Virus record (IMG/VR): IMGVR_UViG_3300017917_000733
Span: 1-64,000 of that record
Length of the DNA: 64,000 nucleotides
Reading direction: 5' to 3' (one strand)
DNA from: a virus
Position 1 is the first letter of the stretch; each line of letters opens with the position of its first letter. Of this stretch, positions 43,566 to 64,000 are shown piece by piece. Both the position numbers and the translations under genes were made by a program. Under the pieces are notes generated by a model, which saw only the letters and a list, made by a program, of their open reading frames with translations, ran no database searches and was not told where the DNA came from.

Positions 43566-44191
43566 TGTCATTAATCAATCTGTCATATAAAGTTGAGGGT
43601 TTTCTAAAGATTTACGACCCTAATAATGGGGAAATCTTTGTAGATAAAAAGAACGCCATTAACTATGAAAACATGTCGCAAGCTATTGCGTACTCACTAA
43701 GCGCCCGCGCACAAGGCCAGGGCCAAATCTATCAAATGGCTTTTGGTAATGGCGGTGCAAGTGTTGACGAAACAGGTGTTATTACTTATCTACCACCAAA
43801 TACCACTGGTCAAAATGCTGCGTTGTACAACCAAACATATGCAAAAATTGTTAACGACAATAGCGTTTTTAACCTAGACCCTACACGTAACAAAATGACA
43901 GTATTGCATACTACAGGCAAGTTCTATACTGACATTTTGGTACAATGTTTATTAGATTACGGTGAGCCTGCAGGCCAGGCTGCGTTTGATAACAGTACAC
44001 AGACTGATTCCAGCTATATTTTCGATGAATTGGGATTACTAGCGAATTGGGGTACAGATACTGAAGGAAATGTAATTACAAGGTTGTTGACACACGTTGT
44101 TTTTCACCCTGTTCAAAAATCTTTGAATAGACAAATTCAGATAGATTACACAGTTAGAATACAAAGTTTGACAAACTTGATAACAATTTAA
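43565..44191 (+). CDS. Putative baseplate/tail-fibre attachment protein
   Basis: 208 aa; MAFGNGG, FDELGL, THVVFHPVQKS and IDYTVRI; structural context. Confidence 0.6.
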   Translation: MSLINLSYKVEGFLKIYDPNNGEIFVDKKNAINYENMSQAIAYSLSARAQGQGQIYQMAFGNGGASVDETGVITYLPPNTTGQNAALYNQTYAKIVNDNSVFNLDPTRNKMTVLHTTGKFYTDILVQCLLDYGEPAGQAAFDNSTQTDSSYIFDELGLLANWGTDTEGNVITRLLTHVVFHPVQKSLNRQIQIDYTVRIQSLTNLITI

Positions 44192-46394: not shown

Positions 46395-46431
46395 TTTTTA
46401 AAATTGTCTTTGTATCCATCTAAATAATGAC

Positions 46432-46737
46432 ATGGATACAAAGACCTTAATAGCGGACGCAAAAGCCCGTTTCAATCACAACTCAGCAAAAGCACACTTA
46501 AAAGACAAATACGAAGCCAAACTTGTCGTGGCTGACCAAGGTGGACTTTGGAAAGCGACACCTGAACTTATTGGGTTTCTCGCATCTAGCACAGACGAAT
46601 ATGTAATTTTAATAGACACCTTTGACAATCCAGTACTAGTAAACCGCATTACGTTGCATGATGTGTTGTATAAAGCATATAACGATGCTATGCAATTGTG
46701 GTTCGCAGAATGGAAAGAATTGGAAAGTAAACGATGA
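46432..46737 (+). CDS. Hypothetical protein, first gene of the modification operon
   Basis: 101 aa; CTAAATA at 46420-46426, 5 nt before the ATG; overlaps the next gene (ATGA). Confidence 0.7.
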   Translation: MDTKTLIADAKARFNHNSAKAHLKDKYEAKLVVADQGGLWKATPELIGFLASSTDEYVILIDTFDNPVLVNRITLHDVLYKAYNDAMQLWFAEWKELESKR

Positions 46738-47537
46738 GTAGGGGCGCATTATTATTTGCGTTTAACTCACCTAAGTACAATTATTATGATATGGCGGTGG
46801 CTACAGCTAAACGCATCAATCATTTTTTAGACATGCCAGTAACTGTTGTTACTGATGAAGAATCACTACCTAAAAATACAAGCTACACATTTGATAATGT
46901 AGTTATAACTACACCTGATAAAAATAACAAACGTGACTGGGGTATGTGGATAAACAAAGGTAGATATCAAGCATTTGAGTTTAGTCCATATGATGAAACT
47001 ATATTGTTAGACACTGATTATATGGTAAATTCAAATAAGTTGCTAAAGACATTTGAATTACCTACTGATTTTTGCTGTCACGATACTACTACATTTTTAA
47101 TGCAGCCTGGCTTGCCACAAGAATATTTGAGTGTATACAGCGATAAAACATTATGGGCAACAGTCGTTCGATTCAATAAAACTAAACGATCAAAACAAAT
47201 ATTTGATTGTTTAGAAATGATTCAGAAAAACTTTGAGCATTATGCTAACATTCATGGTTTTATCTCAGCCACATTTAGAAATGACTACGCATTGACACTA
47301 GCAACAAGATTAGTAAACGGTCACATGAAAGACAAGGCTGATGTAATTCCTTGGGACCTATTACACGTTGGTAAAAATACAATTGTGCATAGAAACAATG
47401 ATGAAGAATTAAACACAGAATATACAGCTATGTTTGATAACTGGCAACGAGGCAAAATTCGTAAAGAATATATAACAATCAAAGATTTAGATTTTCATGT
47501 GATGAACAAAGAAAACTTTTTGGAACTTATAAAATGA
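46734..47537 (+). CDS. Glycosyltransferase-like protein (GT-A, DxD)
   Basis: SPYDETILLDTDY and FRNDYA motifs. Confidence 0.65.
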   Translation: MSRGALLFAFNSPKYNYYDMAVATAKRINHFLDMPVTVVTDEESLPKNTSYTFDNVVITTPDKNNKRDWGMWINKGRYQAFEFSPYDETILLDTDYMVNSNKLLKTFELPTDFCCHDTTTFLMQPGLPQEYLSVYSDKTLWATVVRFNKTKRSKQIFDCLEMIQKNFEHYANIHGFISATFRNDYALTLATRLVNGHMKDKADVIPWDLLHVGKNTIVHRNNDEELNTEYTAMFDNWQRGKIRKEYITIKDLDFHVMNKENFLELIK

Positions 47538-48280
47538 ACAAAGGTTTCGTAATAATGGCACAAAATACTGACAAAGTAGATTATGTGCATTGTGCTAAAG
47601 TTTTAGAAAAAAGCATAAAAAGAGTTATGCCTAATGCTAATGTAACAATTGTGACAACCGAAATGTTACCACATGGTGACAAAGGTGGATACGCAAACGA
47701 TTGGCAAGTATATGAAGTTAGTCCATACGACTTAACAATAAAATTAGAAGCTGACATGTATATTCCTAGAAACATTGAACACTGGTTTGATGTAATGAGT
47801 CAGCAAGATGTTGTAGTATGTGATAAGATTAGAAACTTTAAAGGTGAAATTTCTGATGTTAGAGTTTATCGTAGATTTATAGATGACAATTTACTACCCG
47901 ATGTTTATAACGCAATAACATTTTTCAAAAAGTCGGACACAGCAAAACAGTTTTTTGAAATGGTTCGTGATGTATTTGAAAATTGGGAAGAATACAGAGC
48001 TATATTAAAATGTAAATCAGACGAGCCTGTATCAACTGATTGGGCATATGCTATAGCATGTCACATTATGGGAGTTGAAAAAACAACCATGCCATTCAAC
48101 GAACTATCAATGGTTCATATGAAACAGTTTATCAATGGTACACAAACTGAGAACTGGACTGATACACTAATTTACGAATGTTTGTCAGACCACATTCGTG
48201 TAAATACATATCCTCAGTTATATCCTTTTCACTATCATGTGAAAAACTTTGGTGATAAAATATTACAAGGACTAACATGA
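47534..48280 (+). CDS. Glycosyltransferase-like protein, paralog of the previous gene
   Basis: SPYDLTIKLEADM, STDWAYAIA and HYH motifs. Confidence 0.6.
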   Translation: MNKGFVIMAQNTDKVDYVHCAKVLEKSIKRVMPNANVTIVTTEMLPHGDKGGYANDWQVYEVSPYDLTIKLEADMYIPRNIEHWFDVMSQQDVVVCDKIRNFKGEISDVRVYRRFIDDNLLPDVYNAITFFKKSDTAKQFFEMVRDVFENWEEYRAILKCKSDEPVSTDWAYAIACHIMGVEKTTMPFNELSMVHMKQFINGTQTENWTDTLIYECLSDHIRVNTYPQLYPFHYHVKNFGDKILQGLT

Positions 48281-48618
48281 ACACAGAAGATGATTATGTC
48301 ATATTATGGGAAGCTCCTAAGATTGAAACACCCGAGTTTAGACTGTACTATGATGACAACGGAAAAGTTATAGGTTATTGCGGTGATAAGTCAATGACAG
48401 GAAATTATATCGTTATTGACAAACAAACCTTCTTAGAAGGAAGAATGGATGTAAGAATCATAGATGGTGTAATTTCTAGAGCAGCACCCAATGCTGTTGT
48501 TTATAAATTGATGCCTAGCAATGAAGGAATTAGTTGCTATAAAAATGATGTAAGTATTATCGTCAACGACGATTCTATTGAAACTACTAAATGGAAAATT
48601 GTAACATATGAGCTATGA
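48277..48618 (+). CDS. Hypothetical protein
   Basis: 113 aa; overlaps genes on both sides. Confidence 0.7.
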   Translation: MNTEDDYVILWEAPKIETPEFRLYYDDNGKVIGYCGDKSMTGNYIVIDKQTFLEGRMDVRIIDGVISRAAPNAVVYKLMPSNEGISCYKNDVSIIVNDDSIETTKWKIVTYEL

Positions 48619-49561
48619 GGATATCGTTGACGTTGCTGATTTAGATTGCATATATCTAAGTTATGATGAACCACAAAAAGAAGAATTTTGGCTCAAGATT
48701 AAGAACATGATACCTTGGGCTAAACGAGTCGATGGTGTTAAGGGGTCTGACGCTGCACATAAAGCTGCGGGAAAAGCAAGTGAAACTGAGCGTTTCATTT
48801 TGATTGACGGGGATAACATGCCCGATGAAAACTTTTTCAACATGCAGTTAGACTTTACTGGGTTAGATCCTATCTACAAGAAAGCACAGTTTCGTTGGAA
48901 AGCAATTAATCATATCAACGGTTTACGTTATGGTAATGGTGGATTAAGTAGCTGGACTAAAGAATATGTATCAAAAATGAAAACGCATGAGGCACAAAAT
49001 GAAGGTGATGTGACACGTATTGCTGATTTTTGTATGGACAGTTCTGATAACATATACTGGGCTATGTGGGACTGTTATTCAACTACATATCCTAACTATA
49101 CCCCTTTCCAAGCATGGCGCGCAGGTTTTCGTGAGGGTGTTAAGATGGTACTAAGCAGAGGTGCTGTCCCATCAATAGACGAATTTAAAGAAACAGTCGC
49201 TACCAGAAATCTTAACAATCTCACAATTTGGCACAATGTAGGTGCCGATGTTGAAAATGGAATGTGGGCTATATATGGCGCACGCCTAGGTACATATATG
49301 ACATTGCTCACTGATTGGAATTCACAAAACGTTCAATGGTTCGATAATTACATTCAAATGTGGGAAGAACAAGAACATCGTAATCCATTGGTTGAAGCAG
49401 AAAGCATTGGTAAAGTTCTAAAAGACAAGTTAGGATTACCTATGTGTATTCTTGATGAAGAACAAAGCCTGTTCTTCAAGCGACATTACCAAGCCGATAA
49501 ATATAACTTGGGTCCATTGGTGAAAGAAATGGATGTAATAAGAAAGATTGAAGGTTGGTAA
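48608..49561 (+). CDS. Glycosyltransferase-like protein
   Basis: LSYDEP, RVDGVKGSDAAHKAA, FILIDGDN, YGNGG and AWRAGFREGVKM motifs. Confidence 0.6.
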   Translation: MSYEDIVDVADLDCIYLSYDEPQKEEFWLKIKNMIPWAKRVDGVKGSDAAHKAAGKASETERFILIDGDNMPDENFFNMQLDFTGLDPIYKKAQFRWKAINHINGLRYGNGGLSSWTKEYVSKMKTHEAQNEGDVTRIADFCMDSSDNIYWAMWDCYSTTYPNYTPFQAWRAGFREGVKMVLSRGAVPSIDEFKETVATRNLNNLTIWHNVGADVENGMWAIYGARLGTYMTLLTDWNSQNVQWFDNYIQMWEEQEHRNPLVEAESIGKVLKDKLGLPMCILDEEQSLFFKRHYQADKYNLGPLVKEMDVIRKIEGW

Positions 49562-50514
49562 TGGAACACAAATATATTAAATTAGTGCACAGCAATCCTA
49601 CACATGAAGATTGGTTCGTTGTCAACTGGTGTTTGGGTAATACTTGTAATTTTGCCTGTAGTTATTGTCCTAGCGAACTACATGACGGGTCCAAACCATG
49701 GCCATCACTTGATGATATCAAAGCATTTATAACTAAGACAGTAGAACAAACTTATCCTAGAAAAGTCTATTTTGAATTCACCGGTGGTGAAGTAACATTG
49801 TATCGTCACTTTATTGAAATATGTCAACACTGTACTGATTTAGGTGCTAAAGTTGGATTAATTAGTAATGGATCACGTACATTGCGCTGGTGGGAAGAAA
49901 ACAAAAAGTATTTTGACCATGTGTGTTTAAGTTTTCACCCGCAATTTGCTGACGCCGATCATTTCATTGAGGTAGTCAAGTTGTTACATGATGATATAAG
50001 AACGCATGTTAACATTATGATGGATCCTGATAAGTTTGATTATTGTTATGCAATTGCTAACAAGATTAAAAACTTAGGTAATTTGAGCATGGCATTACAG
50101 CCACTCATACACGATTTTGGAGATACATTGTATGACTATACTCCTTCTCAGAAAAATATCTTTGATAAGCAACATGAATTGATTACTAGACATATTAAGT
50201 TTACAAAGTCTTTTGATTATTACAGAGGTGCGATGCGACTAATATATCCCGATGGTACATCAGAAATTAGTAGCGCACATCGTTTTATTAGTTTTAAAAC
50301 TAACGACTGGAGTGGTTGGAAATGTTATTCAGGTGTTGAGCAGGTTATCGTTGATATGGACGGCAGCATTTGGCGCGGCTGGTGCAGAGTAGGTGGACCA
50401 ATTGGTTACATACACGATGCAAATTTAGAGATACCTACAGATCCTATAATATGTAATAAAACAATGTGTCATTGTAATTTTGATATTATGAGCACAAAGG
50501 AAAATAATGTCTGA
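49561..50514 (+). CDS. Radical SAM protein with C-terminal Cys-rich (SPASM/twitch-like) domain
   Basis: CNFACSYC, TGGE, SNGSR; C-terminal C..G...C...CNKTMCHC. Start taken at the TAATG overlap. Confidence 0.9.
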   Translation: MEHKYIKLVHSNPTHEDWFVVNWCLGNTCNFACSYCPSELHDGSKPWPSLDDIKAFITKTVEQTYPRKVYFEFTGGEVTLYRHFIEICQHCTDLGAKVGLISNGSRTLRWWEENKKYFDHVCLSFHPQFADADHFIEVVKLLHDDIRTHVNIMMDPDKFDYCYAIANKIKNLGNLSMALQPLIHDFGDTLYDYTPSQKNIFDKQHELITRHIKFTKSFDYYRGAMRLIYPDGTSEISSAHRFISFKTNDWSGWKCYSGVEQVIVDMDGSIWRGWCRVGGPIGYIHDANLEIPTDPIICNKTMCHCNFDIMSTKENNV

Positions 50515-51880
50515 TTCATTGAAAACAATTTGCGATTTGAAATGGAATTATCCTATATTTGGAATGGATAGAGGAGAGTTTCGTAGCTGCTGTAGAACAC
50601 CCACTAATCTTGTAACAGAAGCTGAATTGCAAGAATTTGGTATTGATGCATTTTTAAATTCACCTAAACAAAAACAAGAACGACTCGATTTAATTCAAGG
50701 TGTTAGAACAGAAGCATGTACAAGCTGCTGGAGACTAGAAGATTCCGGGATACAAAGTCCCCGACACCATCCTAAACAAATGTGGTGGCAACTTATCAAA
50801 TCAGAACAAGTTAAACCCAGTGAATACACAGAAGAAAAATTAAAGCTAGAACTAAGCAAAATCAATGATATAAACCATCCTGCATTAAACAGCTACAAGC
50901 CCTACATGCTAGAAATCAGTATGGGAAATACTTGCGATTTGAAATGCATGTATTGCAGTCATCACTATTCTACACAATGGGCTACGGAACGTATCAAGTA
51001 TTTTGAGATAACACAAGAACAATACGACAGAGAATTCCCCAAAGCACCGCCTAGCTTTGACGGTAAATTTTGGGAATGGTTTAATGAATACGGTCGTTAT
51101 AGTATCACACGTTTAGGATTGATCGGTGGTGAGCCACTTATCATGCCCGAGTTTTACACATTCATGGACAAAGTAATTGCTAGTGTTGAAGAAATTAATG
51201 ACCAACGTAAAGAAAAGATTACGTTGTGGATCGTTAGCAACTTAAATACACCATCAAATTACTTGCAACGTGTAATGCAATATCTACCTAAGATTGCTAA
51301 AGTGTTTAACTTAGAAATTTTAGGTAGTATGGAAAGTGTAGGTGAAAAGGCTGAGTATATTCGTAACGGGGTAAGTTGGGAAAGATTTACTAAGAATGTT
51401 GACACTATATTGTCTAATAAAGAACTAGAATTTGATTTTGGTTTTATTATGAGCGTTAACGCTTTGAACATTACCAGCTTAAAAGATTTCATCTCTTATA
51501 CAAAACAATTATATGAGAAACACGGCAGACCAGTAACATTAAAACAAAATTTGATTAGTTTCCCTAGTTGGCAAAGTCCTATGATATTATCACAGGATTT
51601 TATTCCATACTTAAAAGATACTATTAATTATCTAAATGACAACGCGGAATCTATGCCAGTAGTAAAAGATCCATTAGGGTCATGGTCTGCCTACGCTAAG
51701 TTCTTACAAACAATCATAGACGGCATTAACAATCCAAATATAGATAGAGTAGCCGACAGGCGCAAATTTGCTGAGTGGTTCGCTACTTATGATGAACGCA
51801 GGCAATTAGTACAAGCAGATGTTTTTCCAGAGTACCGAGAGTTTCAACGTATGTGCAAGGAATTGTTAGATGCTAAGTAA
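50507..51880 (+). CDS. Radical SAM protein with N-terminal Cys-rich domain
   Basis: CDLKCMYC, IGGEP; N-terminal C...CC...CTSCW. Confidence 0.9.
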   Translation: MSDSLKTICDLKWNYPIFGMDRGEFRSCCRTPTNLVTEAELQEFGIDAFLNSPKQKQERLDLIQGVRTEACTSCWRLEDSGIQSPRHHPKQMWWQLIKSEQVKPSEYTEEKLKLELSKINDINHPALNSYKPYMLEISMGNTCDLKCMYCSHHYSTQWATERIKYFEITQEQYDREFPKAPPSFDGKFWEWFNEYGRYSITRLGLIGGEPLIMPEFYTFMDKVIASVEEINDQRKEKITLWIVSNLNTPSNYLQRVMQYLPKIAKVFNLEILGSMESVGEKAEYIRNGVSWERFTKNVDTILSNKELEFDFGFIMSVNALNITSLKDFISYTKQLYEKHGRPVTLKQNLISFPSWQSPMILSQDFIPYLKDTINYLNDNAESMPVVKDPLGSWSAYAKFLQTIIDGINNPNIDRVADRRKFAEWFATYDERRQLVQADVFPEYREFQRMCKELLDAK

Positions 51881-53240
51881 AGCCAAATTTATACCTATAT
51901 TAGCAGAGAGCAGCGAAAAGGTTGTGCTTGCTAGAAACGTTGCCGCTAAATTGGATGAAGAGTACAACACAGATTTAAAATCGGTTGTCTACGGAACAGG
52001 TGATTGGACTGAACGTCTGCGAGAAAGAGTTCCCGACAATTTTTGCTTGTATCCATTCATACACTTTCAACTAGATCCTGACGGTAGAGCAAGACCTTGC
52101 TGTAAATACAAAGTCGGTGATGCATCTTGGCAAGAAAATGTTCCTAAATTACCAGAATCTAATATAGGTGAATTATGGGATCAACAGGAATTTCAAGAAT
52201 TACGTGATAAATTTTTGCGTAATGAAAGACCTAGTGGTTGTAAAGCATGTTGGGATGAAGAGGATGCTGGCATTAAGAGCATGAGGTTGCAGCGTGAGGC
52301 AGCAGGCAAAGAGCACCCGTTCGCTACATTCTTTCATCATATTCCAAGAACATATCCTAAGACTTTAGATTTAAAACTTAGCAATCTATGTAATTTAAAA
52401 TGCAGAATATGCACTCCTTTTTTAAGTAGTCAATGGATGAAAGAAATTAAGGATTTAAATGTCATCGACATGGGCACACATGAAAGTTTTGTTAATAACT
52501 CTAGGGAAAAGTTTAGCGCCAATCCTGAGAATGAAGAAATATTAAAACAGTGGGCACCCTCAGTTACATTTTTAGAATTTTACGGTGGTGAGCCATTAAT
52601 GCAGCAAGAGCATGATAAAATTCTGAAAATATTCCACGAATATGGTAACCCGTCTGAAACAGGTTTATATTATAATACTAATTCAACTATATGTGATGAA
52701 GAATTCTTTAAACTTTGGGCTCCATTTAAAGAAGTAATCATTAATTTCAGTATTGATGATGTGGGTGATAGATTTGAGTATGAAAGAAAAAATGCTAAAT
52801 GGGCTGAGACATTACGCAATATTGAATTGTACAAGGAATACGGTTTAAAATATAATGTCAATTTACAATTGAAGTTTTATACTACGGTGGGAATTCTAAA
52901 TGTGTTTTACTTGAAAGAGTTTTTTGAGTTTGCTAAACCATACAATATCCCTATTATGTTAAACATGGTTCACTATCCACATCATTACTCAATTGTAAAC
53001 TTACCAACAGAAGTTAAAGACAGTATTAAAGAGAAACTAATATCAATTGATACAGCTGGTACTCTTGATCCATGGTCTCCTACAATAGATAATATTATAA
53101 ATTTCATGTATGGTAATGAATGTAATTATGAACTATTAAAGATGCTCTTTGCAAAAGTTAGAATGCATGATGGATATCGAAATGAATCTTTTGAAAAGAC
53201 GTTTCCTGAATTTTATGAAATGATTCGTAAATATGAATAA
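51870..53240 (+). CDS. Radical SAM protein with N-terminal SPASM/twitch-like domain
   Basis: CNLKCRIC, YGGEP; N-terminal CLYPF...PCC...CKACW. Confidence 0.9.
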   Translation: MLSKAKFIPILAESSEKVVLARNVAAKLDEEYNTDLKSVVYGTGDWTERLRERVPDNFCLYPFIHFQLDPDGRARPCCKYKVGDASWQENVPKLPESNIGELWDQQEFQELRDKFLRNERPSGCKACWDEEDAGIKSMRLQREAAGKEHPFATFFHHIPRTYPKTLDLKLSNLCNLKCRICTPFLSSQWMKEIKDLNVIDMGTHESFVNNSREKFSANPENEEILKQWAPSVTFLEFYGGEPLMQQEHDKILKIFHEYGNPSETGLYYNTNSTICDEEFFKLWAPFKEVIINFSIDDVGDRFEYERKNAKWAETLRNIELYKEYGLKYNVNLQLKFYTTVGILNVFYLKEFFEFAKPYNIPIMLNMVHYPHHYSIVNLPTEVKDSIKEKLISIDTAGTLDPWSPTIDNIINFMYGNECNYELLKMLFAKVRMHDGYRNESFEKTFPEFYEMIRKYE

Positions 53241-54402
53241 AACTTTTTGTCCTATGCCGTGGATAAATTTGTCTACGGATGTTAATGGATCACTAAGACC
53301 TTGTTGTAAATTTGCACAACCTAGTCCTGACAACGAATATCAATTACCTAATATGAAAGATGGTAGTTTAGATGTAGTATGGAATGATGTTAAGTTTCAA
53401 AACTTACGACAAGCATTCTTAGATGGAAAGAAACCTAAAGAATGTCAAAGTTGTTGGGACGAAGAGGCTGCCGGAGTACAAAGTTTTAGGGTTCAATTTG
53501 CACAACATAAAAAAATCGATTTGTCTAAAGTTGAATTTACACCGTTTGCTAAAAACGGACCTATGGCATTAGATTTGAAACTAAACAATGTATGCAATCT
53601 TAAATGTAGAATTTGCGGAGCACAAGCTAGCTCTACTTTCTTGAAAGAATACCAAGAACGATTCAATATTAAAATTGAAGACGGTGCGTATTGGCTTTCT
53701 AATAAAATTCTAGGCACTCAAAACGAACAAGTGTTATCTGAATGGGCTAAGGATTTAGTTCATTTAGAAGTAACGGGAGGCGAGCCAATGGCTAGTCCTG
53801 AAAACATTAAAGTGTTAGAGTTATTGATAAATTCTGGACGAGCATCTGAGATTACTATACTGTTGAACACAAATGGTACACTGTATAACAAAAAGTTTAT
53901 AGACCTATTACTAAATTTCAAGTCAGTTACGTTATGCATTTCAATTGATGATTTATATGGACGTTTGGAATATGAGAGATATCCTACTGAGTGGGATGAA
54001 ATTCAAACCAATCTACAAAAATTCTTAAAATTGCGTAGTGAAAACAAAAATGTATTTTTAACATTGTGTCCTACAGTAAGTAATTTTAATGTTTACTATT
54101 TGCCTGAATATCTTGAATGGTCTAAAGAGTTAGATATACATACTTACTATAACATATTACATTATGCACCCAGTCATAGTATAAAAAATTTACCTGATAA
54201 GTTAAAAGATATTGTAGCAGAAAGATTAACAGCAACTGAGTTTACTGAAGTTAAACGTTTTCTTTTGCTTAAAAGAGAAAATGATAGTTTGATTCAGGAG
54301 TTCATTTCAACAACTATTGAATTGGATGATTTTAGACAACAAAACTTTGAAGAAACATTTGGTATTTGGGGTCAACTAGTCATGGAATATAAAAATGGAT
54401 AA
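53233..54402 (+). CDS. Radical SAM protein with N-terminal SPASM/twitch-like domain
   Basis: CNLKCRIC, TGGEP, NTNGT; N-terminal CPMPW...PCC...CQSCW. Confidence 0.9.
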   Translation: MNKTFCPMPWINLSTDVNGSLRPCCKFAQPSPDNEYQLPNMKDGSLDVVWNDVKFQNLRQAFLDGKKPKECQSCWDEEAAGVQSFRVQFAQHKKIDLSKVEFTPFAKNGPMALDLKLNNVCNLKCRICGAQASSTFLKEYQERFNIKIEDGAYWLSNKILGTQNEQVLSEWAKDLVHLEVTGGEPMASPENIKVLELLINSGRASEITILLNTNGTLYNKKFIDLLLNFKSVTLCISIDDLYGRLEYERYPTEWDEIQTNLQKFLKLRSENKNVFLTLCPTVSNFNVYYLPEYLEWSKELDIHTYYNILHYAPSHSIKNLPDKLKDIVAERLTATEFTEVKRFLLLKRENDSLIQEFISTTIELDDFRQQNFEETFGIWGQLVMEYKNG

Positions 54403-56436: not shown

Positions 56437-58986
56437 ACTCTCGACTTGTTCTGTTATTTTCCATTCATCATTTATAAATTTATCAACTCCGGTAGTAACT
56501 GCATCGTCCAACTTATACATATGAACTAATATTTTTCCAGTATCAACTAGTGTATTAGAGAAAAAATGTAACGCCTCAAGTAACCTATCAGTATCACCTA
56601 CTGATAATAAAATCATATTTATTTTTTTAGGGAATAAATGATACGTGGGTGAACTATACTCGTGCATTAGAGAAATATTTGTATATTTTTCAACAACTAA
56701 ATTTCGTGCAGTAATTCCTGTATTGTCCTTTTCGAATGATTCTAATAATGGTTTTAAAATTTCTAATGATTTCTCTTCGGATAATTTTAGATTTTTTCCA
56801 GCATCTATTAACTGTTCGTGTAGCCACTTTTGGTTTAGTTCTTCTCTCCAATGATTCATCCCAAAAGAGTTAAACGGATCTGCTGATATAACTTTAAGAG
56901 TTTTATTAGCATTTGCAATAATAACAGGTCTTCCTCCTAAGTTAGGACCTATATCAATTACTACCCCTCCTGTAGGTAAGTTCCTAGCGATATTATGCAA
57001 CGCGATTCTTTCAGGCACACTCATTGATGACAGACAGCTTTCTAAAGGAAGTTCTCTAGGACGTTGGTCAGATTCTATATAAAATATTTTTCTAGTTTTT
57101 GTTTTCTTAATATCAGTCCATTTACCAGAAGTTTCATATACATATTCAAAATCGGTTAATTCTGTCGCTGATTCAATATAGTTAACAAACTTGTATGTGT
57201 TAAGTATTTGGTAATTCCCACTATCATCGATTTTGAATCTTATTTTTGATGTGTAGGAATACATTGACGGTTCTACAACAAAAATGAAATCTTTGCGATC
57301 CAACTCATCATTAAAATCTATTGTTATTTCATACCCGCCTTTGACTCTCCATAACAACCTTAAAAATCCAAAAACTTCATTCATTAAGCTATCAGCAAAA
57401 TCACCATGCTCTGACTTAATTAAGTTGTAGTCAAAGTCTTCATACTCTACTTCGGAGGATACTTTTTCACTATCAAAATCTACAGTAAAATGTTCAGTTA
57501 TATCACCTATGCTATGTACATTAGTAAGTGTCCCCCCAAATGTTTTACACAAGTGCAACCAAATATGCATTAACTTGATTCTTATCATTCTATGCAGTCT
57601 AGTATTTTTAAGGTCTAGTGTATACCAACCTCCTAAAAGCTGGTGATCCCTAGGATTCATATTATACTTTTCGCGGTTATCATAATCTGAACCTAAGTTG
57701 TCACCTAAACCCGGGCCTGGACTAACTGCTAGAATTCTCATTCTATGATTCCACAACATGTTCATGCTATGTGAGAAAGCCTCAATGTCTTCACCAGGAG
57801 CACCAATTACCCAACATGCTGATACTTGCATTCCTACTTTGTGACTGTCAATTAAGTTTTGATTAATTTCTGCTACAGTGTTCTTTTTATTAATTGCTTT
57901 TAAAACCTTATCGCTACCGGATTCAATGCCATAGTTAAATCCTTGGGCGCCAGCAGCCTTCATTAATTTATAGAATTCAAGATCCATTCTGCCGTCTGCT
58001 CTCGCATATCCCCACCAATTGATACCTAAATCTCGTTCAATTAACCCTTCACAAAATTTTCTGAATTCTTTTAAGTTACCATTCATTAGGCTATCAACAA
58101 ATGAAACAAAGTTAATACCGTATTTTTTAACCTGATACTCTAATTCATCAATAACATTAGAGGAACCCCTGTCTCTAAATTTCCAGTAATATACTTCAGT
58201 ACAATAACTACACTTGGCAATACAACCTCTACTTATTTCAGCACAAATAGAATTTTTACCCCAGTATTTTTCTAAATCAAAATCAGAGTAATCAGGATAT
58301 GGCAAACTATCAATGTCTATACGTGTATCACTGTATAAACTACCTATAGAAATTTGTTCTGGTTTAATATCATTTTCCCAGTTGTTTAAAAAGTCTAAAA
58401 CGTTTTGTTCACTCTCGCCTATGAAATAATAATCAGATTCTTTGGGCATAACAAAATTTCTTTCGTTACACTGTGGTCCACCCATAATTATGGTAACATT
58501 AGGTTTGCGTTTTCTTAACTCTCGTATCATCCATAATGTAGGTTCAAGATTTGTATAATACGTACTGAACCCTACGATATCACTTTCTTCTTCTAGTATC
58601 TTATTCAAATATGATTCCAGTATAGGCTCATATGTAGGATGAATTCTAGTAAAGTATTCTGTACCTTGCCACCACCAATAATTAGCACCGTTCCATGCAT
58701 CAGCTAGGTCTGGGTTTGCTTCTTTGAGTGCATAATGTGATTCTACATTGAAATCAAAGACTCGTGTAGTATACCCAGCTTCGCGGGTTAATGCTGACAA
58801 TCTTGCAAGGTTGTACGGTGGCATATAGATAGCCCAACTACCCATTACACATAATGTTATTTTTGTTTTTCTAGAGGCAGTGAATACTTCTACTCCCTTG
58901 ACGTTCAAACGTAATTTTCTCGCATTGGGTGCAGTATTTTTAGGGAATACATTTTCTGCTAACCACGTGTCTTTATCTACAGCCAT
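56413..58986 (-). CDS. Cobalamin-binding radical SAM enzyme fused to a class I methyltransferase-like domain
   Basis: PPYNLARL, VGFSTY and MGGPQ (B12 domain); SRGCIAKCSYC, GIESGS; C-terminal VIDIGPNLGG. Confidence 0.85.
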   Translation of the reverse strand: MAVDKDTWLAENVFPKNTAPNARKLRLNVKGVEVFTASRKTKITLCVMGSWAIYMPPYNLARLSALTREAGYTTRVFDFNVESHYALKEANPDLADAWNGANYWWWQGTEYFTRIHPTYEPILESYLNKILEEESDIVGFSTYYTNLEPTLWMIRELRKRKPNVTIIMGGPQCNERNFVMPKESDYYFIGESEQNVLDFLNNWENDIKPEQISIGSLYSDTRIDIDSLPYPDYSDFDLEKYWGKNSICAEISRGCIAKCSYCTEVYYWKFRDRGSSNVIDELEYQVKKYGINFVSFVDSLMNGNLKEFRKFCEGLIERDLGINWWGYARADGRMDLEFYKLMKAAGAQGFNYGIESGSDKVLKAINKKNTVAEINQNLIDSHKVGMQVSACWVIGAPGEDIEAFSHSMNMLWNHRMRILAVSPGPGLGDNLGSDYDNREKYNMNPRDHQLLGGWYTLDLKNTRLHRMIRIKLMHIWLHLCKTFGGTLTNVHSIGDITEHFTVDFDSEKVSSEVEYEDFDYNLIKSEHGDFADSLMNEVFGFLRLLWRVKGGYEITIDFNDELDRKDFIFVVEPSMYSYTSKIRFKIDDSGNYQILNTYKFVNYIESATELTDFEYVYETSGKWTDIKKTKTRKIFYIESDQRPRELPLESCLSSMSVPERIALHNIARNLPTGGVVIDIGPNLGGRPVIIANANKTLKVISADPFNSFGMNHWREELNQKWLHEQLIDAGKNLKLSEEKSLEILKPLLESFEKDNTGITARNLVVEKYTNISLMHEYSSPTYHLFPKKINMILLSVGDTDRLLEALHFFSNTLVDTGKILVHMYKLDDAVTTGVDKFINDEWKITEQVESLIVIERA

Positions 58987-58989
58987 AAT

Positions 58990-60057
58990 TTACTTCCTAT
59001 CACCGAATAGTATATAATCTTCTTGTTTGTAACCTTCCATGATTTCAGATCCTGAGCCAGAGTCTGGCGCACTATTTTTGTTATTAAGACTACCGCGAAT
59101 AGGAACAATAGCCCACGTGCAGTAATCTTTAAAGTGTGGTAGATTTTTTAATTCTTCTTCTAAGCTAAGTGTTTCTTCAACATTGTGTGGAGCCATCATA
59201 AATTTAACTTCTAAATGCCCAACACCTACATTTTTATGTTCAGCCTTTTCTTTTGCCACAGCTTCAACGACCTTAACGAACTTTGCCCTGTCATAAAACT
59301 CATAGTGTACTGATAGATTTAAATCACCATAGTGAATAATTTCTTGGTAGTAGTCAGGTTTGCGACTACCGTTGCTGTGTAAGCTAACGTGATGTCCGCA
59401 TGCATTCAAATAACGTAACCAATCTAAGAAATCTTTGTTAACAGTTGGTTCGCCACCTGAAATAATGAAATTAACACTCTCACCCTTCGTAAACTTGCTT
59501 TCAATCAAATGTGTAGCTCTCATTAATTCTTCTAATGACTTATGTGGGTCAGTGTTATTATGTATCCAGGGCCAGCAATAGCTACAATCGTAGTTACAAC
59601 GACGACCTATTTCCCAATAGATTTGCTTCTGCGTACTAGCGTGAGTTCTTTCCATACTGACGAAATCAGTTAGTTCAGTGTCAAGTAACTCAGGTTGTGC
59701 TGGTAAATTTTGACCTTTACGTAATGTAGGTATAAATTCTATCTTGCTTGCTTTAGGTATAAACAAGTCAGCACCGCAACTACACACGTTCTTAGTACAG
59801 TCTATCCAGTCATCGGGAACAGAAAAATCATCCCAAACACTGCCCAACTTACCACCAACCCTGCAGCTTGCTGTCCAAACTCCACCATCCATATCAATAA
59901 ACAAACTATCAACACCTGCGCCGCACTTCCAACCTGTTAAGTAATTTAATCTTGCCCCTACTAATTCATCAGTAGACCAATCTCTCCAATTACCATTTTG
60001 GTTATATGTTCTGATAGGCTTACCAGGTGTAAATTCGTAATTTGTTCTGTCTGTCAT
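58990..60057 (-). CDS. Radical SAM protein with the Cys-rich domain placed N-terminally
   Basis: CNYDCSYC, SGGEP, SNGSR; N-terminal WKCGAG...CRVGG...CTKNVCSC. Confidence 0.9.
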   Translation of the reverse strand: MTDRTNYEFTPGKPIRTYNQNGNWRDWSTDELVGARLNYLTGWKCGAGVDSLFIDMDGGVWTASCRVGGKLGSVWDDFSVPDDWIDCTKNVCSCGADLFIPKASKIEFIPTLRKGQNLPAQPELLDTELTDFVSMERTHASTQKQIYWEIGRRCNYDCSYCWPWIHNNTDPHKSLEELMRATHLIESKFTKGESVNFIISGGEPTVNKDFLDWLRYLNACGHHVSLHSNGSRKPDYYQEIIHYGDLNLSVHYEFYDRAKFVKVVEAVAKEKAEHKNVGVGHLEVKFMMAPHNVEETLSLEEELKNLPHFKDYCTWAIVPIRGSLNNKNSAPDSGSGSEIMEGYKQEDYILFGDRK

Positions 60058-61409
60058 TTAATCTCTCCGCACTGTATGTAGAACTCTTTGAGTTCGGGGA
60101 ATGTTTCTGTAAAATTTAGTCCGCGTAATTCATCGAAATCTTTGAACCAAGCATGAAATTGTTGTCTCAAAATACTTTGATCGGAGTTGTTATTCTTAAT
60201 ACTGTCTCTTAGATTTATTAAGAAATCAGTATAAGCACCCCATCTACCATATCGGTCACTGAAGTCAGGCATAGATGATTGAACAGATTGTATCCATTCA
60301 ATTGCATCTGATAAGTTATCAGCAAAATTTGGTGTCAAAACAAAAGGTGTGTGACTATTAGGCCACGTTACTATGTTTTGCTTCAACATCGCAGGTTTAC
60401 CTGTATCCTGACTTACTTTATATACCCATTGTAAAAACTTCTTATATCTTGGGATGCTAAGTGCTGTAATGCTAGGTAAAAATCCTAACGTAACTCTGTC
60501 ATTGTCTTTTGTCATGTTGAATAACTTATAGACATTACTTTCAAATCGTTTCCAATCTAACCCGTTACGAATGTATTCAGCCTGTTCTTCTGTGCTTTCC
60601 ATACTTATTAGAATTTCTAGTTTGAACTTTTCATTCAACTTAGGTAGATAATTCATAAGTTTATTGAAATAGCTTTCAGGAGTATTCAAGTTAGTGACTA
60701 TCCATATAGTAGTGTTGTCGTTTTCAACATCTTTGTAAACATTTAACAACTTATCAATGAATGGATAAAAGTCGGGTGTAATCAACGGCTCGCCGCCGAT
60801 AATACCTATTCTATCTAAACTATGTTTTGCTTCGGTATCAACCCATCGCCAGAACAAATCAATAAACTTTTGATTAGGAGATCCGTTGACTTCTTCATAA
60901 ATCTGATATGAAATTTTACCATTCTTAACGCTCTCACTGGCCCATTGACTACTATAAACGTGATTGCAATACATGCACTTTAAGTCGCATGTATTTCCTA
61001 AACTCACTTCTAGCATGAAAGGCTTGTGACTTCTTAGAAACTTTGAGTCAAGGCTAACTTGTTCAGAAATAACATTAAGGTCGTCTGTTTGAAATTCTTC
61101 AAACATGTTTCTATGATAAGCAAAATCAATAAACCCCTGAGGACTATTGCCTCGTAAGCTGACCGCGCCTTGATCTTCAATTTGCCAACATTGATTACAA
61201 TCACTATGACGCTCTCCCTTTACCATTTCAAATCTGCGATTTATTTGATAATCAGTATTTAGGAATAAGTTAATATCATAAGTGTTTAAATCCTTCTCAG
61301 TTACTGTCTGAAAGGGAGTTTTACAGCATGTTCGTATCTCATTCCTAGTTAAACTGATGTTTGGATAACCCCAGCGCAAATGGCATAGGCTTTTTTCGTT
61401 TGAGGGCAT
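60054..61409 (-). CDS. Radical SAM protein, paralog of 50507..51880
   Basis: GNTCDLKCMYC, IGGEPLI, and N-terminal C.L.W.YP...CC.TP. Confidence 0.9.
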   Translation of the reverse strand: MPSNEKSLCHLRWGYPNISLTRNEIRTCCKTPFQTVTEKDLNTYDINLFLNTDYQINRRFEMVKGERHSDCNQCWQIEDQGAVSLRGNSPQGFIDFAYHRNMFEEFQTDDLNVISEQVSLDSKFLRSHKPFMLEVSLGNTCDLKCMYCNHVYSSQWASESVKNGKISYQIYEEVNGSPNQKFIDLFWRWVDTEAKHSLDRIGIIGGEPLITPDFYPFIDKLLNVYKDVENDNTTIWIVTNLNTPESYFNKLMNYLPKLNEKFKLEILISMESTEEQAEYIRNGLDWKRFESNVYKLFNMTKDNDRVTLGFLPSITALSIPRYKKFLQWVYKVSQDTGKPAMLKQNIVTWPNSHTPFVLTPNFADNLSDAIEWIQSVQSSMPDFSDRYGRWGAYTDFLINLRDSIKNNNSDQSILRQQFHAWFKDFDELRGLNFTETFPELKEFYIQCGEIK

Positions 61410-61419
61410 AATGGATTTT

Positions 61420-61436
61420 TATAAATAACTATTTAG
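61420..61436. promoter_or_regulatory. Face-to-face late-promoter-like pair
   Basis: TATAAATA (+, 61420-61427) and CTAAATA (-, 61430-61436) between the divergent enzyme operons. Confidence 0.65.
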
Positions 61437-61448
61437 TGAGATTGGTTT

Positions 61449-61547
61449 ATGAAATTTTTAAAAAACTGGATATTGAGTATCATCCGTGAGTATAGGTACA
61501 GAAAAAAATTAAAACAACTTAAAAAACGAGACCCTTTCATATATTAA
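61449..61547 (+). CDS. 32-aa basic peptide ending in RDPFIY (not in the supplied track)
   Basis: MKFLKNWILSIIREYRYRKKLKQLKKRDPFIY*; stop abuts the carbamoyltransferase ATG. Confidence 0.7.
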   Translation: MKFLKNWILSIIREYRYRKKLKQLKKRDPFIY

Positions 61548-63023
61548 ATGAATTACTTAGGCATATCATCCGGCTTCCATGATGCATCGGCTACCTTAAT
61601 TGATTTCGAAGGTAATATCTTATTTGCTGGTCATAGTGAACGATACAGTAAAAATAAGCATGACAAATACTTAGATATTGACCTATTGAGAGATGTAACT
61701 AAATATCAAACGGATGCTTTGGAAATCCATTATTACGAAAGACCTTGGCTAAAGTCGTTAAGAGAAATACGAGCAGGCCAACCAATTTCACATCTAACAG
61801 CTAAAAGTGCTATAGGACAACAGTTCGTGTCATTTTTAGATAATCCAAAAATTCATACATATAATCATCATTTAAGTCATGCTGCTGGCGGATTTCAAAC
61901 TAGTCCTTTCGAAGATGCAACTGTCGTTGTTATAGACGCAATAGGTGAGTTTGATACTATAACAATATGGGACGCTAGATACGATAATAATGGATTTGCA
62001 AAGTACAAAAAACTATACAGCAAAAAGTATCCAAACAGTATTGGTTTATTTTACTCAGCAATGACTCAACGAGTAGGTCTTAGACCTTTAGACGAAGAAT
62101 ACATTCTTATGGGAATGGCCGCATACGGTGAGCCTGTGCATCTACATGATATGATGGCACTTTTCAATAATGTATCAGATATAAATTTTAAAGAAAATTT
62201 ACACATAGGTGTTCCTGAAGATTTTTTAAATAATGCGAATCCTATGGATATCGCTAATAGCGCACAGCATTTGGTAGAATGGATGATTAAGCAAGTTGTA
62301 AGTAAAGCTAGGTATTTAGGGTCAAGCAAAAATTTAGTATATAGCGGTGGCGTTGCACTAAACTGTTTAGCTAACAGACTATTAGGAGATTATTTTGAAA
62401 ACATTTGGATCATGCCTAATCCAGGTGATGCAGGAAGTAGTCTCGGAGCGGCTGCTCTTGGTTATGGCAGAAAACTTAATTGGATTAATGCTTTTCTTGG
62501 GCATGACATTGCCGGTACTTATCCCACTAACAATATACTTGACCATCTACTTACCGATCGTATTGTTGGTGTGGCTAGTGGTAGGGCAGAATTTGGACCA
62601 AGAGCCTTAGGAAATAGAAGTCTGCTTGCAGACCCAAGAGGAAACGAAGTAAAGGATCTAGTAAATGAAATCAAACGCAGACAAAAATTTCGACCATTTG
62701 CGCCAGTCATTCTGGAAGAGTATGTTGATGATTATTTTGATATGCCTGCTGGGTTCAGTAATAGTAGGTATATGCAAGTCATCGCTCCTTGCAGGCATCC
62801 TGACTTATTTCCTGCTATCGTTCATTATGATGGTACCAGTCGTGTCCAAACAGTGTCAAAAGATGGAACAGGCATTAGAGAACTCCTCGAAAAATGGTAC
62901 GTACTAACAGGCTGTCCTATGCTATTGAATACGTCATTGAACATTCGAGGCGAACCCATGGTCAACGATAGAAATGATGCAGCCCGTTTTGAGAATCTGT
63001 ATGGAGTCAAAGTTTTATCATAA
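61548..63023 (+). CDS. O-carbamoyltransferase, NodU/CmcH family
   Basis: HDASA, ERYS, HHLSHAA, DAIGE, MGMAAYG, GGVALN, PGDAG, EFGPRALGNRS, RPFAP and LNTSLN motifs. Confidence 0.93.
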   Translation: MNYLGISSGFHDASATLIDFEGNILFAGHSERYSKNKHDKYLDIDLLRDVTKYQTDALEIHYYERPWLKSLREIRAGQPISHLTAKSAIGQQFVSFLDNPKIHTYNHHLSHAAGGFQTSPFEDATVVVIDAIGEFDTITIWDARYDNNGFAKYKKLYSKKYPNSIGLFYSAMTQRVGLRPLDEEYILMGMAAYGEPVHLHDMMALFNNVSDINFKENLHIGVPEDFLNNANPMDIANSAQHLVEWMIKQVVSKARYLGSSKNLVYSGGVALNCLANRLLGDYFENIWIMPNPGDAGSSLGAAALGYGRKLNWINAFLGHDIAGTYPTNNILDHLLTDRIVGVASGRAEFGPRALGNRSLLADPRGNEVKDLVNEIKRRQKFRPFAPVILEEYVDDYFDMPAGFSNSRYMQVIAPCRHPDLFPAIVHYDGTSRVQTVSKDGTGIRELLEKWYVLTGCPMLLNTSLNIRGEPMVNDRNDAARFENLYGVKVLS

Positions 63024-63031
63024 GTAATTAA

Positions 63032-64000
63032 ATGCTAAGAGATGTATTTTATTACGGAAAAAAGCCAAACGCACACCCTAGAGAAAAGTTCGCAGTAAAC
63101 CTAGCTGACGCTAGACAACAATGCACAACAGAACACTTTTGGATAATTAATGAATACTGTGATTATCGTGGGTTCGATTGGGATTTTGATTTTGAATTTT
63201 TACCCGACGAAGATGTTTGGGCAGAAAACCATAACAACGTATGGCCTAGTCAACATCAAAAAGATAGTGGCACGTGGTTATGCTCTAAAGAACACAGCGA
63301 TATTATAATATATCGTGCTGACGTAGATCCTGTAAAAAGAAGAAATGAAATAAACGAACACTGGGTTCTTTTGAAAAATGTAGATACAGAAAAATTTGAT
63401 TTTAGCTGGCATCCTGATCCAACCGAACCTCCCTATATCTATGTATTTGGAAATCAATGGTATGATGTAAGTTTAGAACCCACACTAGAATATCATGTTT
63501 CGGGTGCAACTGATAAGAAATACATGACAGATATAATAGCGCATACAAAACCTGATATGGACAATTGGGTTACTACTTATCAAGTGGAAGATTTTGACTA
63601 TAGCTGGCGCCCTCACCCACACAATCCTCCTATGATATATCAGTTCGGAACATTACTGGATGATATACACTTAAAGGATGGTCCTGTATATAACGCTCCG
63701 GGAAATGATGGTACAATCGTCTACCTTGATAATAAACTTGCTACAAAATCTAAAGTTTCATATCCTAAGTATTATATTAACAATACACTAGATGAGTTAA
63801 TACAAGACCATCCTAACGAAATATTTTGGGCCTTGCGTAAAAATATTAACTACGATAATTTTGATTTTAGTTGGACACCGACCAAAGAAAACGTTTTTCA
63901 TATAAACGTATTCGGATCTCCTGATAGTGAAACTACGCAAACTTATTTTGTTAATTCGGAAATGATAAGTCGCGGATTCAAAAGTTTCAATTTTATAGAA
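63032..64000 (+). CDS. Repeat-containing protein, partial (runs off the right edge)
   Basis: MLRDVFYYGKKPNAHPREKF...; repeated FD(F/Y)SW.P....Y.FG units; ATAAGTA 5 nt before the ATG. Confidence 0.7.
   Translation, partial: MLRDVFYYGKKPNAHPREKFAVNLADARQQCTTEHFWIINEYCDYRGFDWDFDFEFLPDEDVWAENHNNVWPSQHQKDSGTWLCSKEHSDIIIYRADVDPVKRRNEINEHWVLLKNVDTEKFDFSWHPDPTEPPYIYVFGNQWYDVSLEPTLEYHVSGATDKKYMTDIIAHTKPDMDNWVTTYQVEDFDYSWRPHPHNPPMIYQFGTLLDDIHLKDGPVYNAPGNDGTIVYLDNKLATKSKVSYPKYYINNTLDELIQDHPNEIFWALRKNINYDNFDFSWTPTKENVFHINVFGSPDSETTQTYFVNSEMISRGFKSFNFIE

Follow-up and report, generated by a model that had tools for sequence, protein, structure and literature searches.

Positions 1-64,000 of the IMG/VR contig IMGVR_UViG_3300017917_000733 (the window; the full contig is linear and 121,144 bp long) carry, directly downstream of three fibre-like genes, an island encoding glycosyltransferase-like proteins, eight radical S-adenosylmethionine (SAM) enzymes, an SGNH protein and a carbamoyltransferase (Table 1). 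Judged by its genes, the source is an uncultured jumbo T4-like phage. Our analysis indicates that the substrate of the island is probably a sugar or glycan, a judgement summed over all readings that share this feature. More tentatively, and with somewhat less than even confidence in the full statement, we read the island as a late, cytoplasmic module that builds and tailors a glycan, with a virion protein as the most likely acceptor.

According to this reading, four GT-A-type transferases (two GT8-like proteins, the product of gene 48608-49561 and the C-terminal domain of a repeat protein) would attach sugars to the acceptor. The eight radical SAM enzymes (five with an N-terminal twitch domain, two permuted small twitch-like enzymes and one B12-dependent enzyme) would functionalise unactivated C-H positions of the sugars, where possible reactions include oxidation to a keto sugar, epimerisation, deoxygenation and C-methylation. 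The carbamoyltransferase would O-carbamoylate a hydroxyl, and the SGNH protein would add or remove an O-acyl group. The acceptor would most likely be a virion protein, for which the adjacent fibre proteins are the first candidates, and the outcome would be a lineage-specific sugar coat on the particle. Directly observed are the gene content, folds and families, synteny, promoter-type motifs and bacterial counterparts; we infer the sugar substrate, the reaction of each radical SAM enzyme, the virion target and the timing of expression. Glycan building and tailoring draws support from the GT-A fold, the SGNH fold, the carbamoyltransferase, the BtrN-like twitch domain and the sugar-rich bacterial neighbourhoods with ABC-2 (ATP-binding cassette) exporters, each of which is presented below.

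None of the three glycosyltransferase-like proteins (genes 46734, 47534 and 48608) matches a Pfam or NCBIfam model. The structure model of the 48608-49561 product (predicted local distance difference test, pLDDT, 90.9) has a GT-A domain fold, and D67 and D69 form a DxD that is near-invariant in 51 sequences. Its family is large, with 1129 representative clusters at E<=1e-3 and more than 100 clusters at ~80% identity, and 7 of the 15 long members scanned carry an N-terminal GT-B domain. Searches with the family profile returned nothing usable among solved structures, and hhalign against four GT2 proteins returned nothing. Genes 46734-47537 and 47534-48280 are paralogues with 24% identity and likely belong to GT8: the top 17 PDB rows for their family profile are all glycogenin-1 (GT8), as weak matches at E 0.019-0.046, and an Atlas lead connects the pair to GT8/Nucleotid_trans clusters with a score of 0.96. 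Inspection of the repeat protein reveals three [FY]D[FY]SWxP copies by pattern and further degenerate FDFSWxPDP-type copies by eye, while the 48608-type GT-A-like domain occurs a second time at its C-terminus (about residues 687-911).

Six of the eight radical SAM enzymes pass the Pfam Radical_SAM model (PF04055, cut-off 29.5 bits) at 35.7-56.4 bits. The other two, 50507 (25.4 bits) and 60054 (23.1 bits), fall below this cut-off and both pass NF033640 (241-249 bits), the full-length NCBIfam model for twitch domain-containing radical SAM proteins (N_Twi_rSAM; cut-off 170 bits). In total, four island proteins reach the NF033640 cut-off (241-331 bits); a fifth, 54395-55570, scores 163.0 bits and is placed inside the family by its tree despite the lower score. 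When the five window paralogues are aligned with five relatives, C59, C77, C124 and C127 are invariant and precede C174/C178/C181 (CX3CX2C), and a GGEP motif is shared. Pfam SPASM matches lie at the N-terminus in three proteins, and residues 166-238 of BtrN, its auxiliary-cluster (twitch) domain, are matched at E 8e-7 by the N-terminal domain in the profile of NF033640. BtrN, the 2-deoxy-scyllo-inosamine dehydrogenase of the butirosin pathway, likewise joins a radical SAM core to one auxiliary-cluster domain. The likeness is of that one domain only: the twitch domain is C-terminal in BtrN and N-terminal in NF033640 enzymes, whose radical SAM core is no closer to BtrN than to viperin and which do not qualify as BtrN-type dehydrogenases.

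A FastTree phylogeny of 197 NF033640-like proteins (midpoint rooting, with several long branches flagged) places each window paralogue in its own well-supported clade together with bacterial members. Gene 50507-51880 groups with Bdellovibrionota members, 53233-54402 falls in a starred 15-row clade with 12 bacterial members, and 54395-55570, whose best bacterial match is 51% identical, also falls in a starred clade; 51870-53240 has 1107 metagenome relatives at E<=1e-10. The best bacterial matches of the window paralogues are 36-51% identical, compared with 22-38% identity among the paralogues themselves. Because identities to bacterial proteins equal or exceed those between paralogues, the five enzymes constitute at least four old subfamilies, which presumably catalyse different reactions.

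The two small radical SAM enzymes, 49555-50514 and 58990-60057, are circular permutations, with a 5-Cys domain that is C-terminal in the first and N-terminal in the second. Both permuted forms also stand side by side in Bdellovibrionales chromosomes, at 47-58% identity. A third small paralogue (contig 84441-85400), 33% identical to 49555-50514, lies between its two partners in a second small sugar cluster at contig 83374-86458, which consists of a short-chain dehydrogenase/reductase (SDR) 4,6-dehydratase-like gene, the small radical SAM gene and a DegT-type aminotransferase gene. This cluster is directly 3' of genes for dihydrofolate reductase (DHFR) and a canonical ThyA, and a class I methyltransferase gene follows ~3.6 kb downstream.

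The eighth enzyme, 56413-58986, combines a B12-binding domain (PF02310, 36.4 bits, cut-off 32.1) with a radical SAM core (PF04055, 48.7 bits), which is the domain order of class B methylases (the GenK, Fom3, PhpK and AprD4 group). It differs from these in scoring far below their equivalog cut-offs, where the best NCBIfam match is the PhpK family at 114.3 bits against a cut-off of 600 and no characterised equivalog (PhpK, BchE, HpnR, AprD4 and others) is reached. It differs further in a C-terminal extension of ~400 aa, conserved in relatives and of no clear family; the C-terminal 260 aa give a weak methyltransferase match (E 0.01). The closest solved relatives of the island's non-NF033640 types are AprD4 (E 2.6e-6, for 56413-58986) and BlsE (E 1.3e-3), both weak matches and both enzymes that act on sugars. 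A radical SAM homologue of phage KVP40 (22% identical) was dropped for its unrelated context beside a QueC-like gene.

The carbamoyltransferase, 61548-63023, scores 164.1 bits with Carbam_trans_C (cut-off 27) and 117.8 bits with Carbam_trans_N (cut-off 24), matches the PHROG 'Nol-like carbamoyltransferase' at E 8.6e-99 and is 46% identical to a protein of Ralstonia phage RsoM2USA. It has both Pfam domains in common with NodU/CmcH/TobZ and with the 'Nol-like' enzymes of marine T4-like phages, and we take it to be of the TobZ/NodU/CmcH type. It differs from them in its score with the NodU equivalog (131 bits, cut-off 1000), by which it is not a NodU orthologue, and in the conserved micro open reading frame (micro-ORF) that precedes it. 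Homologues are present in 141 phage records, the majority from T4-like cyanophages of marine origin.

The SGNH protein, 55567-56436, has no match at E<=10 to Pfam Lipase_GDSL and related models, aligns with five bacterial GDSL proteins in hhalign over block I only (probability 1.6%), yields a family profile with nothing usable among solved structures and has no Atlas entry. Its predicted structure has an SGNH fold, with matches that include phage fibre SGNH domains such as that of G7C gp63.1. The catalytic residues Ser10 (GCSF, block I) and His263 (NxHP, block V) are invariant in 6/6 sequences, and Asn261 stands in place of the usual Asp of DxxH. The gene is the fastest-diverging of the island, at 29-39% identity among relatives (loci L005-L009) compared with 54-88% for the flanking genes.

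The micro-ORF at 61449-61547 (...YRKKLKQLKKRDPFIY) ends in a stop that abuts the carbamoyltransferase start. Its pattern, 32-35 aa ending in ...RDPFIY(K), recurs in eight further loci (RsoM2USA, L007, L009, L039, L042, L043, L050 and L064). It matched no NCBIfam family or known precursor family and was not found in the chromosomal bacterial arrays, so that it is not a general partner of radical SAM enzymes; its candidate roles are those of regulatory leader, small subunit and peptide substrate. The last of these would suit a different role for the island, in which radical SAM enzymes directly modify a peptide or virion protein in the manner of ribosomally synthesised and post-translationally modified peptides (RiPPs) by cross-linking, epimerisation or methylation, with the micro-ORF or another small ORF as precursor. 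Such a role would be in keeping with SPASM/twitch radical SAM enzymes being best known as peptide maturases, with the many sub-threshold NCBIfam matches to RiPP maturases, with conservation of the micro-ORF in nine phage-type loci and with the 6017-aa protein and fibre genes that adjoin the island. Nevertheless, Pfam and NCBIfam scans detected neither a RiPP recognition element nor a precursor of known family, conservation of the micro-ORF peaks at its C-terminus, and the genes found repeatedly with the arrays encode sugar enzymes. We consider peptide modification quite unlikely.

A scan of one genome per species identified 79 loci with NF033640-like genes, 47 of which hold 2-8 such genes within 8 kb either side. 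Many of these arrays are clearly chromosomal, lying on contigs of up to 4.3 Mb or beside genes for tRNA synthetase, LspA, Lgt, Obg or NADH dehydrogenase. Neighbours were scanned at 22 hand-chosen loci, which are not a random sample, and include GT2/GT4 transferases (L012, L020, L058), carbamoyltransferases (L015, L032, L033), GDSL proteins (L019, L037, L049, L058), ABC or ABC-2 exporter parts (L031, L049, L058), a sulfotransferase (L049), UDP-glucose dehydrogenase, SDR dehydratases, YdjC and methyltransferases. PhyH and WelO5-like oxygenases, a P450, an AMP-binding enzyme and an SxtJ-like protein also appear, and an adenosine 5'-phosphosulfate kinase was seen in the phage-like locus L050. As annotated, the recurring theme of the bacterial arrays is carbohydrate assembly, tailoring and export.

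Six loci (L039, L042, L043, L045, L050 and L064) were not counted as bacterial, as all carry high-identity island genes and two of the genomes hold a phage portal. In one metagenome-assembled genome (MAG) labelled Haliscomenobacter (G001), the contigs of L039 and L042 (183 kb and 148 kb) each carry the island together with a 65%-identical portal; a MAG labelled Legionellales (G002), which holds L050, has a 62%-identical portal on a different contig from that locus. The contigs of L039, L042 and L050 probably stem from jumbo phages and were sorted into bacterial bins. At array L019, a neighbouring fibre-like protein has an intramolecular-chaperone domain; it was dropped, having no recurrence in the other 78 loci.

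Exporter parts and glycosyltransferases such as those adjoining the bacterial arrays are typical of envelope polysaccharide pathways. They would suit a phage that remodels a host-envelope glycan late in infection (lipopolysaccharide, capsule or a different surface polysaccharide), with exclusion of superinfecting phages or release of progeny from debris as possible benefits. Remodelling would also agree with the abundance of carbamoyltransferase homologues in cyanophages, with the fast divergence of the SGNH protein, as expected of an enzyme that tracks a variable host surface, and with the fibre SGNH domains among its fold matches. The composition and position of the island argue otherwise. 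No membrane-like segment was detected in any island protein (highest 19-residue hydropathy 1.36), and family scans of the island turned up neither a membrane-anchored or initiating polyprenyl-phosphate transferase nor a flippase or exporter. Late expression would leave little time for a payoff, and the tight linkage is with fibre genes and not with lysis or early genes. We regard envelope remodelling as rather unlikely.

The same enzymes raise the prospect of a small-molecule product, namely a soluble aminoglycoside-like or nucleoside-like pseudo-oligosaccharide or other secondary metabolite directed, for instance, against competing phages or cells. The nearest characterised analogues come from antibiotic pathways (the BtrN twitch domain, AprD4 and BlsE), the carbamoyltransferase is presumably of TobZ/NodU/CmcH type, the oxygenases, P450, AMP-binding enzyme and SxtJ-like protein adjoin bacterial arrays, and the second cluster at 83374-86458 unites an SDR dehydratase, a small radical SAM enzyme and a DegT aminotransferase. 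The resemblance to antibiotic enzymes is nonetheless distant, with no equivalog cut-off reached, the 121 kb seen showed no enzyme that would form a scaffold (cyclitol synthase, nonribosomal peptide synthetase or polyketide synthase), and conserved placement inside a structural late region is unusual for a metabolite cluster. A small-molecule product is therefore judged unlikely.

Inspection of the ORF map shows that the island comprises three blocks. The first, on the plus strand (46432-56436), contains 11 ORFs whose stops and starts overlap or abut; the second, on the minus strand (61409-56413), contains three ORFs and overlaps the end of the first by 24 nt; the third, again on the plus strand, consists of the micro-ORF at 61449 followed by 61548-63023 and 63032-65770 (the last end read on the contig). 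The island extends past the 64-kb window to ~65770; including a class I glutamine amidotransferase would move its end to 66493. The gene for this amidotransferase (contig 65774-66493) is directly 3' of the repeat protein gene with TATAAATA upstream, and it could be an island member, for example as a nitrogen donor.

The window contains 12 copies of CTAAATA, compared with 20 expected by chance, and the motif is therefore not enriched overall. Six of these copies, however, have a gene start on their own strand within the next 60 nt, whereas such stretches make up ~2% of oriented positions (37 genes x 60 nt, our own arithmetic). The genes so headed are the portal gene, three more structural genes (2037-2852, 4992-7400 and 7468), 46432 (motif at 46420) and 61409 on the minus strand (motif at 61430), and CTAAATA is also upstream of the homologue of the first island gene in L005 and L007. 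The longer motif TATAAATA, which we take to be the T4 late consensus, has three copies in the first 66.5 kb of the contig, each directly 5' of a plus-strand gene, and the third block begins downstream of the copy at 61420. The product of 12772-13671 is a gp55-like late sigma factor; together with late-type motifs at all three blocks, it fits gp55-dependent late transcription as predicted from the sequence.

An earlier note on this DNA had described three transcription units under a shared late motif, containing three glycosyltransferase-like proteins, eight CxxxCxxC enzymes, an SGNH protein, a NodU/CmcH enzyme and a repeat protein. The ORF map agrees with its coordinates, and a late-type motif does head each block, as CTAAATA at the first plus block and the minus block and as TATAAATA at the third. 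Its inventory also stands: exactly one CX3CX2C is present in each of eight island ORFs, both Pfam carbamoyltransferase domains are far above cut-off, the SGNH fold is supported by the structure model, the [FY]D[FY]SWxP repeats are seen, and the three glycosyltransferase-like proteins hold, 48608-49561 by fold and 46734 and 47534 on weak evidence. The extent that the note gave was incomplete, as it did not include the continuation past the window end, the conserved micro-ORF or the arrays in bacterial chromosomes.

Five IMG/VR contigs carry the island in the same order at 54-88% protein identity. In L005 and L007, the order is giant protein, three fibre-like genes, small ORF, two GT8-like genes, GT-A gene and radical SAM genes. 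A third lineage (L091; portal 65% identical, binned into a bacterial MAG) keeps the order from giant protein through fibre genes, small ORF and two GT8-like genes to the GT-A gene, and continues with five NF033640 genes, the micro-ORF, the carbamoyltransferase and the repeat protein; the stretch seen contains no small permuted enzymes, B12 enzyme or SGNH gene. Variation is also found closer to the window phage. The counterpart of 60054-61409 lies on the opposite strand in L007, and none was found in the stretch of L009. In one relative, a methyltransferase gene and two different NF033640 genes replace two of the window genes, and another relative carries additional inserts.

The cultured Ralstonia phage RsoM2USA carries a reduced module consisting of fibre-like gene 355, GT8-like genes 353 and 352, GT-A gene 350, NF033640 gene 349 and GT-A-like gene 348, with a separate carbamoyltransferase-radical SAM group at genes 199-204. 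ORF356 and the tail sheath ORF359, near the reduced module, were detected in virions by mass spectrometry, and the passages searched of the RsoM2USA paper make no mention of radical or carbamoyl enzymes. Linkage of fibre-like genes to the island is found in all related phages examined (L005, L007, L091 and RsoM2USA). Across these genomes, the transferase core is fixed beside the fibre genes and the tailoring set of radical SAM enzymes varies between lineages, as expected for diversification of a surface glycan.

The virion is favoured as the target because of this conserved linkage in four phage lineages, the late-type motifs and the island's freedom from membrane segments and from any initiating transferase, flippase or exporter. 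A precedent comes from mycobacteriophages, in which phage glycosyltransferases glycosylate the virion (Freeman 2023, as cited in the part of PMC12619734 consulted). The neighbourhood comparison that the earlier note had suggested finds island order and fibre linkage kept in relatives. Of its central proposal, an unusual glycan built and tailored on the virion, the building and tailoring have gained support from folds, families and neighbourhoods, while the proposed location on the virion still draws on gene position, promoter motifs and the lack of membrane segments.

DNA hypermodification, in which bases are decorated with a modified sugar or carbamoyl group to evade restriction, was also weighed. 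Phage glycosyltransferases that add diverse glycans to DNA are known (Pyle 2024, as cited in the part of PMC12619734 consulted), all island proteins are predicted to be cytoplasmic, and the second sugar cluster is adjoined, at ~82 kb, by DHFR and a gene of the thymidylate synthase family. That gene is, however, the only one of its family on the contig and has the canonical ThyA motifs LPPCH and PFNI, the latter with what we take to be the dUMP-specifying Asn. Neither a hydroxymethylase nor a base-exchange enzyme was seen on the 121 kb (24% of the genome), and the late-type motifs and location among structural genes point away from DNA. Hypermodification is accordingly very unlikely in our estimation.

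Several observations weigh against a glycan on the virion. No substrate can be read from the sequence, and NF033640 has no member with a known reaction. The fibre-gene linkage may be mere conserved gene order of the late region, and bacterial arrays beside exporters suggest a secreted or envelope glycan, not a protein-bound one. PhyH/WelO5-like oxygenases, the P450, the AMP-binding enzyme and the SxtJ-like protein equally suit a small natural product, and SPASM or twitch radical SAM enzymes very often act on peptides. Among the assignments themselves, GT8 membership of two genes is weak (E about 0.02) and the SGNH structure model is of low confidence (pLDDT 60.5). The 22 neighbour-scanned loci were hand-picked and several 'bacterial' loci are misbinned phage contigs. 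As only 24% of the genome is in hand, missing partner genes are not countable as absent.

A broader and speculative proposal, to which we would give a minority chance, is that NF033640 arrays (2-8 paralogues with permuted small twitch enzymes, carbamoyltransferase, SGNH protein and methyltransferases) form an unrecognised 'glycan-editing' class that functionalises C-H positions of assembled sugar chains. Such a class would span bacteria (Bdellovibrionota, Bacteroidota and Actinomycetota) and jumbo phages, and in the phage, the tail fibres or a different virion protein would bear a glycan that is radical-SAM-tailored, carbamoylated and lineage-specific. If true, this would be the first known case of a virion glycan that depends on radical chemistry.

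Table 1. Features of the island and its upstream border, in window coordinates unless marked as contig coordinates
Feature	Position	Strand	Remarks
Three fibre-like structural genes	43565-44191, 44228-45430, 45441-46394	+	Directly upstream of island; PHROG virion structural protein N-terminus
CTAAATA late-type promoter motif	46420..46426	+	Heads first plus block
101-aa protein, first block gene	46432..46737	+	Homologues in L005, L007 (65%) and L091 (38%)
GT8-like (GT-A) putative glycosyltransferase	46734..47537	+	Weak profile evidence; conserved D-x-D region
Second GT8-like putative glycosyltransferase	47534..48280	+	RsoM2USA gene 352 is 31% identical
113-aa protein	48277..48618	+	Homologues 54-59% identical in L005 and L007
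GT-A-fold glycosyltransferase-like protein	48608..49561	+	Large family outside Pfam
Small radical SAM enzyme, core N-terminal, 5-Cys domain C-terminal	49555..50514	+	Pfam 45.5 bits; CX3CX2C at residue 31
N-terminal-twitch radical SAM enzyme (NF033640)	50507..51880	+	248.6 bits; subfamily common to 60054-61409
N-terminal-twitch radical SAM enzyme (NF033640), second subfamily	51870..53240	+	330.7 bits
N-terminal-twitch radical SAM enzyme (NF033640), third subfamily	53233..54402	+	312.3 bits
N-terminal-twitch-like radical SAM enzyme, fourth subfamily	54395..55570	+	NF033640 163.0 bits, under cut-off
SGNH-fold protein, putative O-acyl esterase or transferase	55567..56436	+	Fastest-evolving island gene
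B12-binding radical SAM enzyme, class B methylase-like, long C-terminal extension	56413..58986	-	Pfam B12-binding and Radical_SAM
Small radical SAM enzyme, 5-Cys domain N-terminal	58990..60057	-	Permuted paralogue of 49555-50514
N-terminal-twitch radical SAM enzyme (NF033640)	60054..61409	-	240.6 bits; 38% identical to 50507-51880
Divergent promoter region	61420..61436		TATAAATA on plus strand at 61420-61427; CTAAATA on minus strand at 61430-61436
32-aa micro-ORF ending ...KKRDPFIY	61449..61547	+	Abuts carbamoyltransferase gene
NodU/CmcH/TobZ-type carbamoyltransferase	61548..63023	+	Both Pfam domains
912-aa repeat protein	63032..65770 (contig)	+	C-terminal ~687-911 is GT-A-like domain

Upstream of the island, the window contains T4-type genes for a prohead protease, a portal, a gp46/47-like nuclease and baseplate wedge and hub proteins. 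The jumbo phages Phosso, Atu_ph07, PA5oct and XaC1 have portals with 50-57% identity to that of the window, and megablast of the island DNA against 50,697 phage records gave zero DNA-level matches. Contig completeness is rated at 24%, which implies a genome of ~500 kb. Between a baseplate wedge gene and the fibre-like genes, 25341-43394 is a single 6017-aa ORF nearly without family matches, the sole one being a sub-threshold match to E1_FCCH; a counterpart 31-50% identical is present in L091. The fibre-like genes themselves have a weak match to the Peptidase_G2 intramolecular-chaperone domain (E 5e-5). Within the island, the products of 46432-46737 and 48277-48618 gave no match in Pfam, NCBIfam or PHROG (for the former, none above threshold).

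Beyond the island, contig 71125-75339 is a host-like metabolic run with an SbtA-family Na+/bicarbonate transporter (367 bits), a peroxiredoxin, a DOPA 4,5-dioxygenase family protein, a class II aldolase, TerC and a CMD-family protein, followed by a MoxR-like AAA ATPase and then a VWA/metallopeptidase pair. A DUF4422 protein (108 bits), presumably of a glycosyltransferase-like family that occurs in polysaccharide loci, is encoded at contig 108052-108789, distant from the island.

Text searches of papers, whose supplementary tables might list such genes, found no paper on NF033640 and none on an island of radical SAM enzymes and glycosyltransferases in a jumbo phage. Papers retrieved with 'twitch domain-containing radical SAM' do not deal with NF033640, judging by title and abstract, and a 'moraphage' paper does not mention radical SAM. 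A related report describes a T4-like environmental viral genome with 12 radical SAM genes, a number given as part of its treatment of Fe-S cluster metabolism (Nishimura et al. 2017, PMC5332604). That marine genome resembles the present phage in its wealth of radical SAM genes, and the passage that reports it differs in giving no gene order, family assignment, function or glycan reading.

The present phage module is conserved and devotes eight radical SAM enzymes to apparent sugar tailoring, with members that have many metagenome relatives. Because NF033640 has no known reaction and yet forms arrays of up to eight genes in bacteria too, solving one member would annotate thousands of genes. The question is testable at the bench now, since RsoM2USA is cultured and carries the reduced module of two GT8-like genes, a GT-A gene and an N-twitch radical SAM gene beside its tail genes. 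A product on the virion would bear on host recognition, phage stability and immune or defence evasion; a metabolite or DNA mark would be equally new for phages.

To our knowledge, phage-encoded glycosylation is known only with ordinary transferases, and the virion glycosylation modules of mycobacteriophages and the capsid enzymes of chlorovirus PBCV-1 (A64R) consist of transferases only or with simple sugar enzymes, with no radical SAM enzymes. Virion and DNA glycosylation by phage transferases is already in print, as cited in PMC12619734; what is new here is the extension of a phage glycosylation module by a radical SAM array that is common to bacteria. In the present island, for which virion glycosylation is proposed, the transferases are outnumbered by eight radical SAM enzymes.

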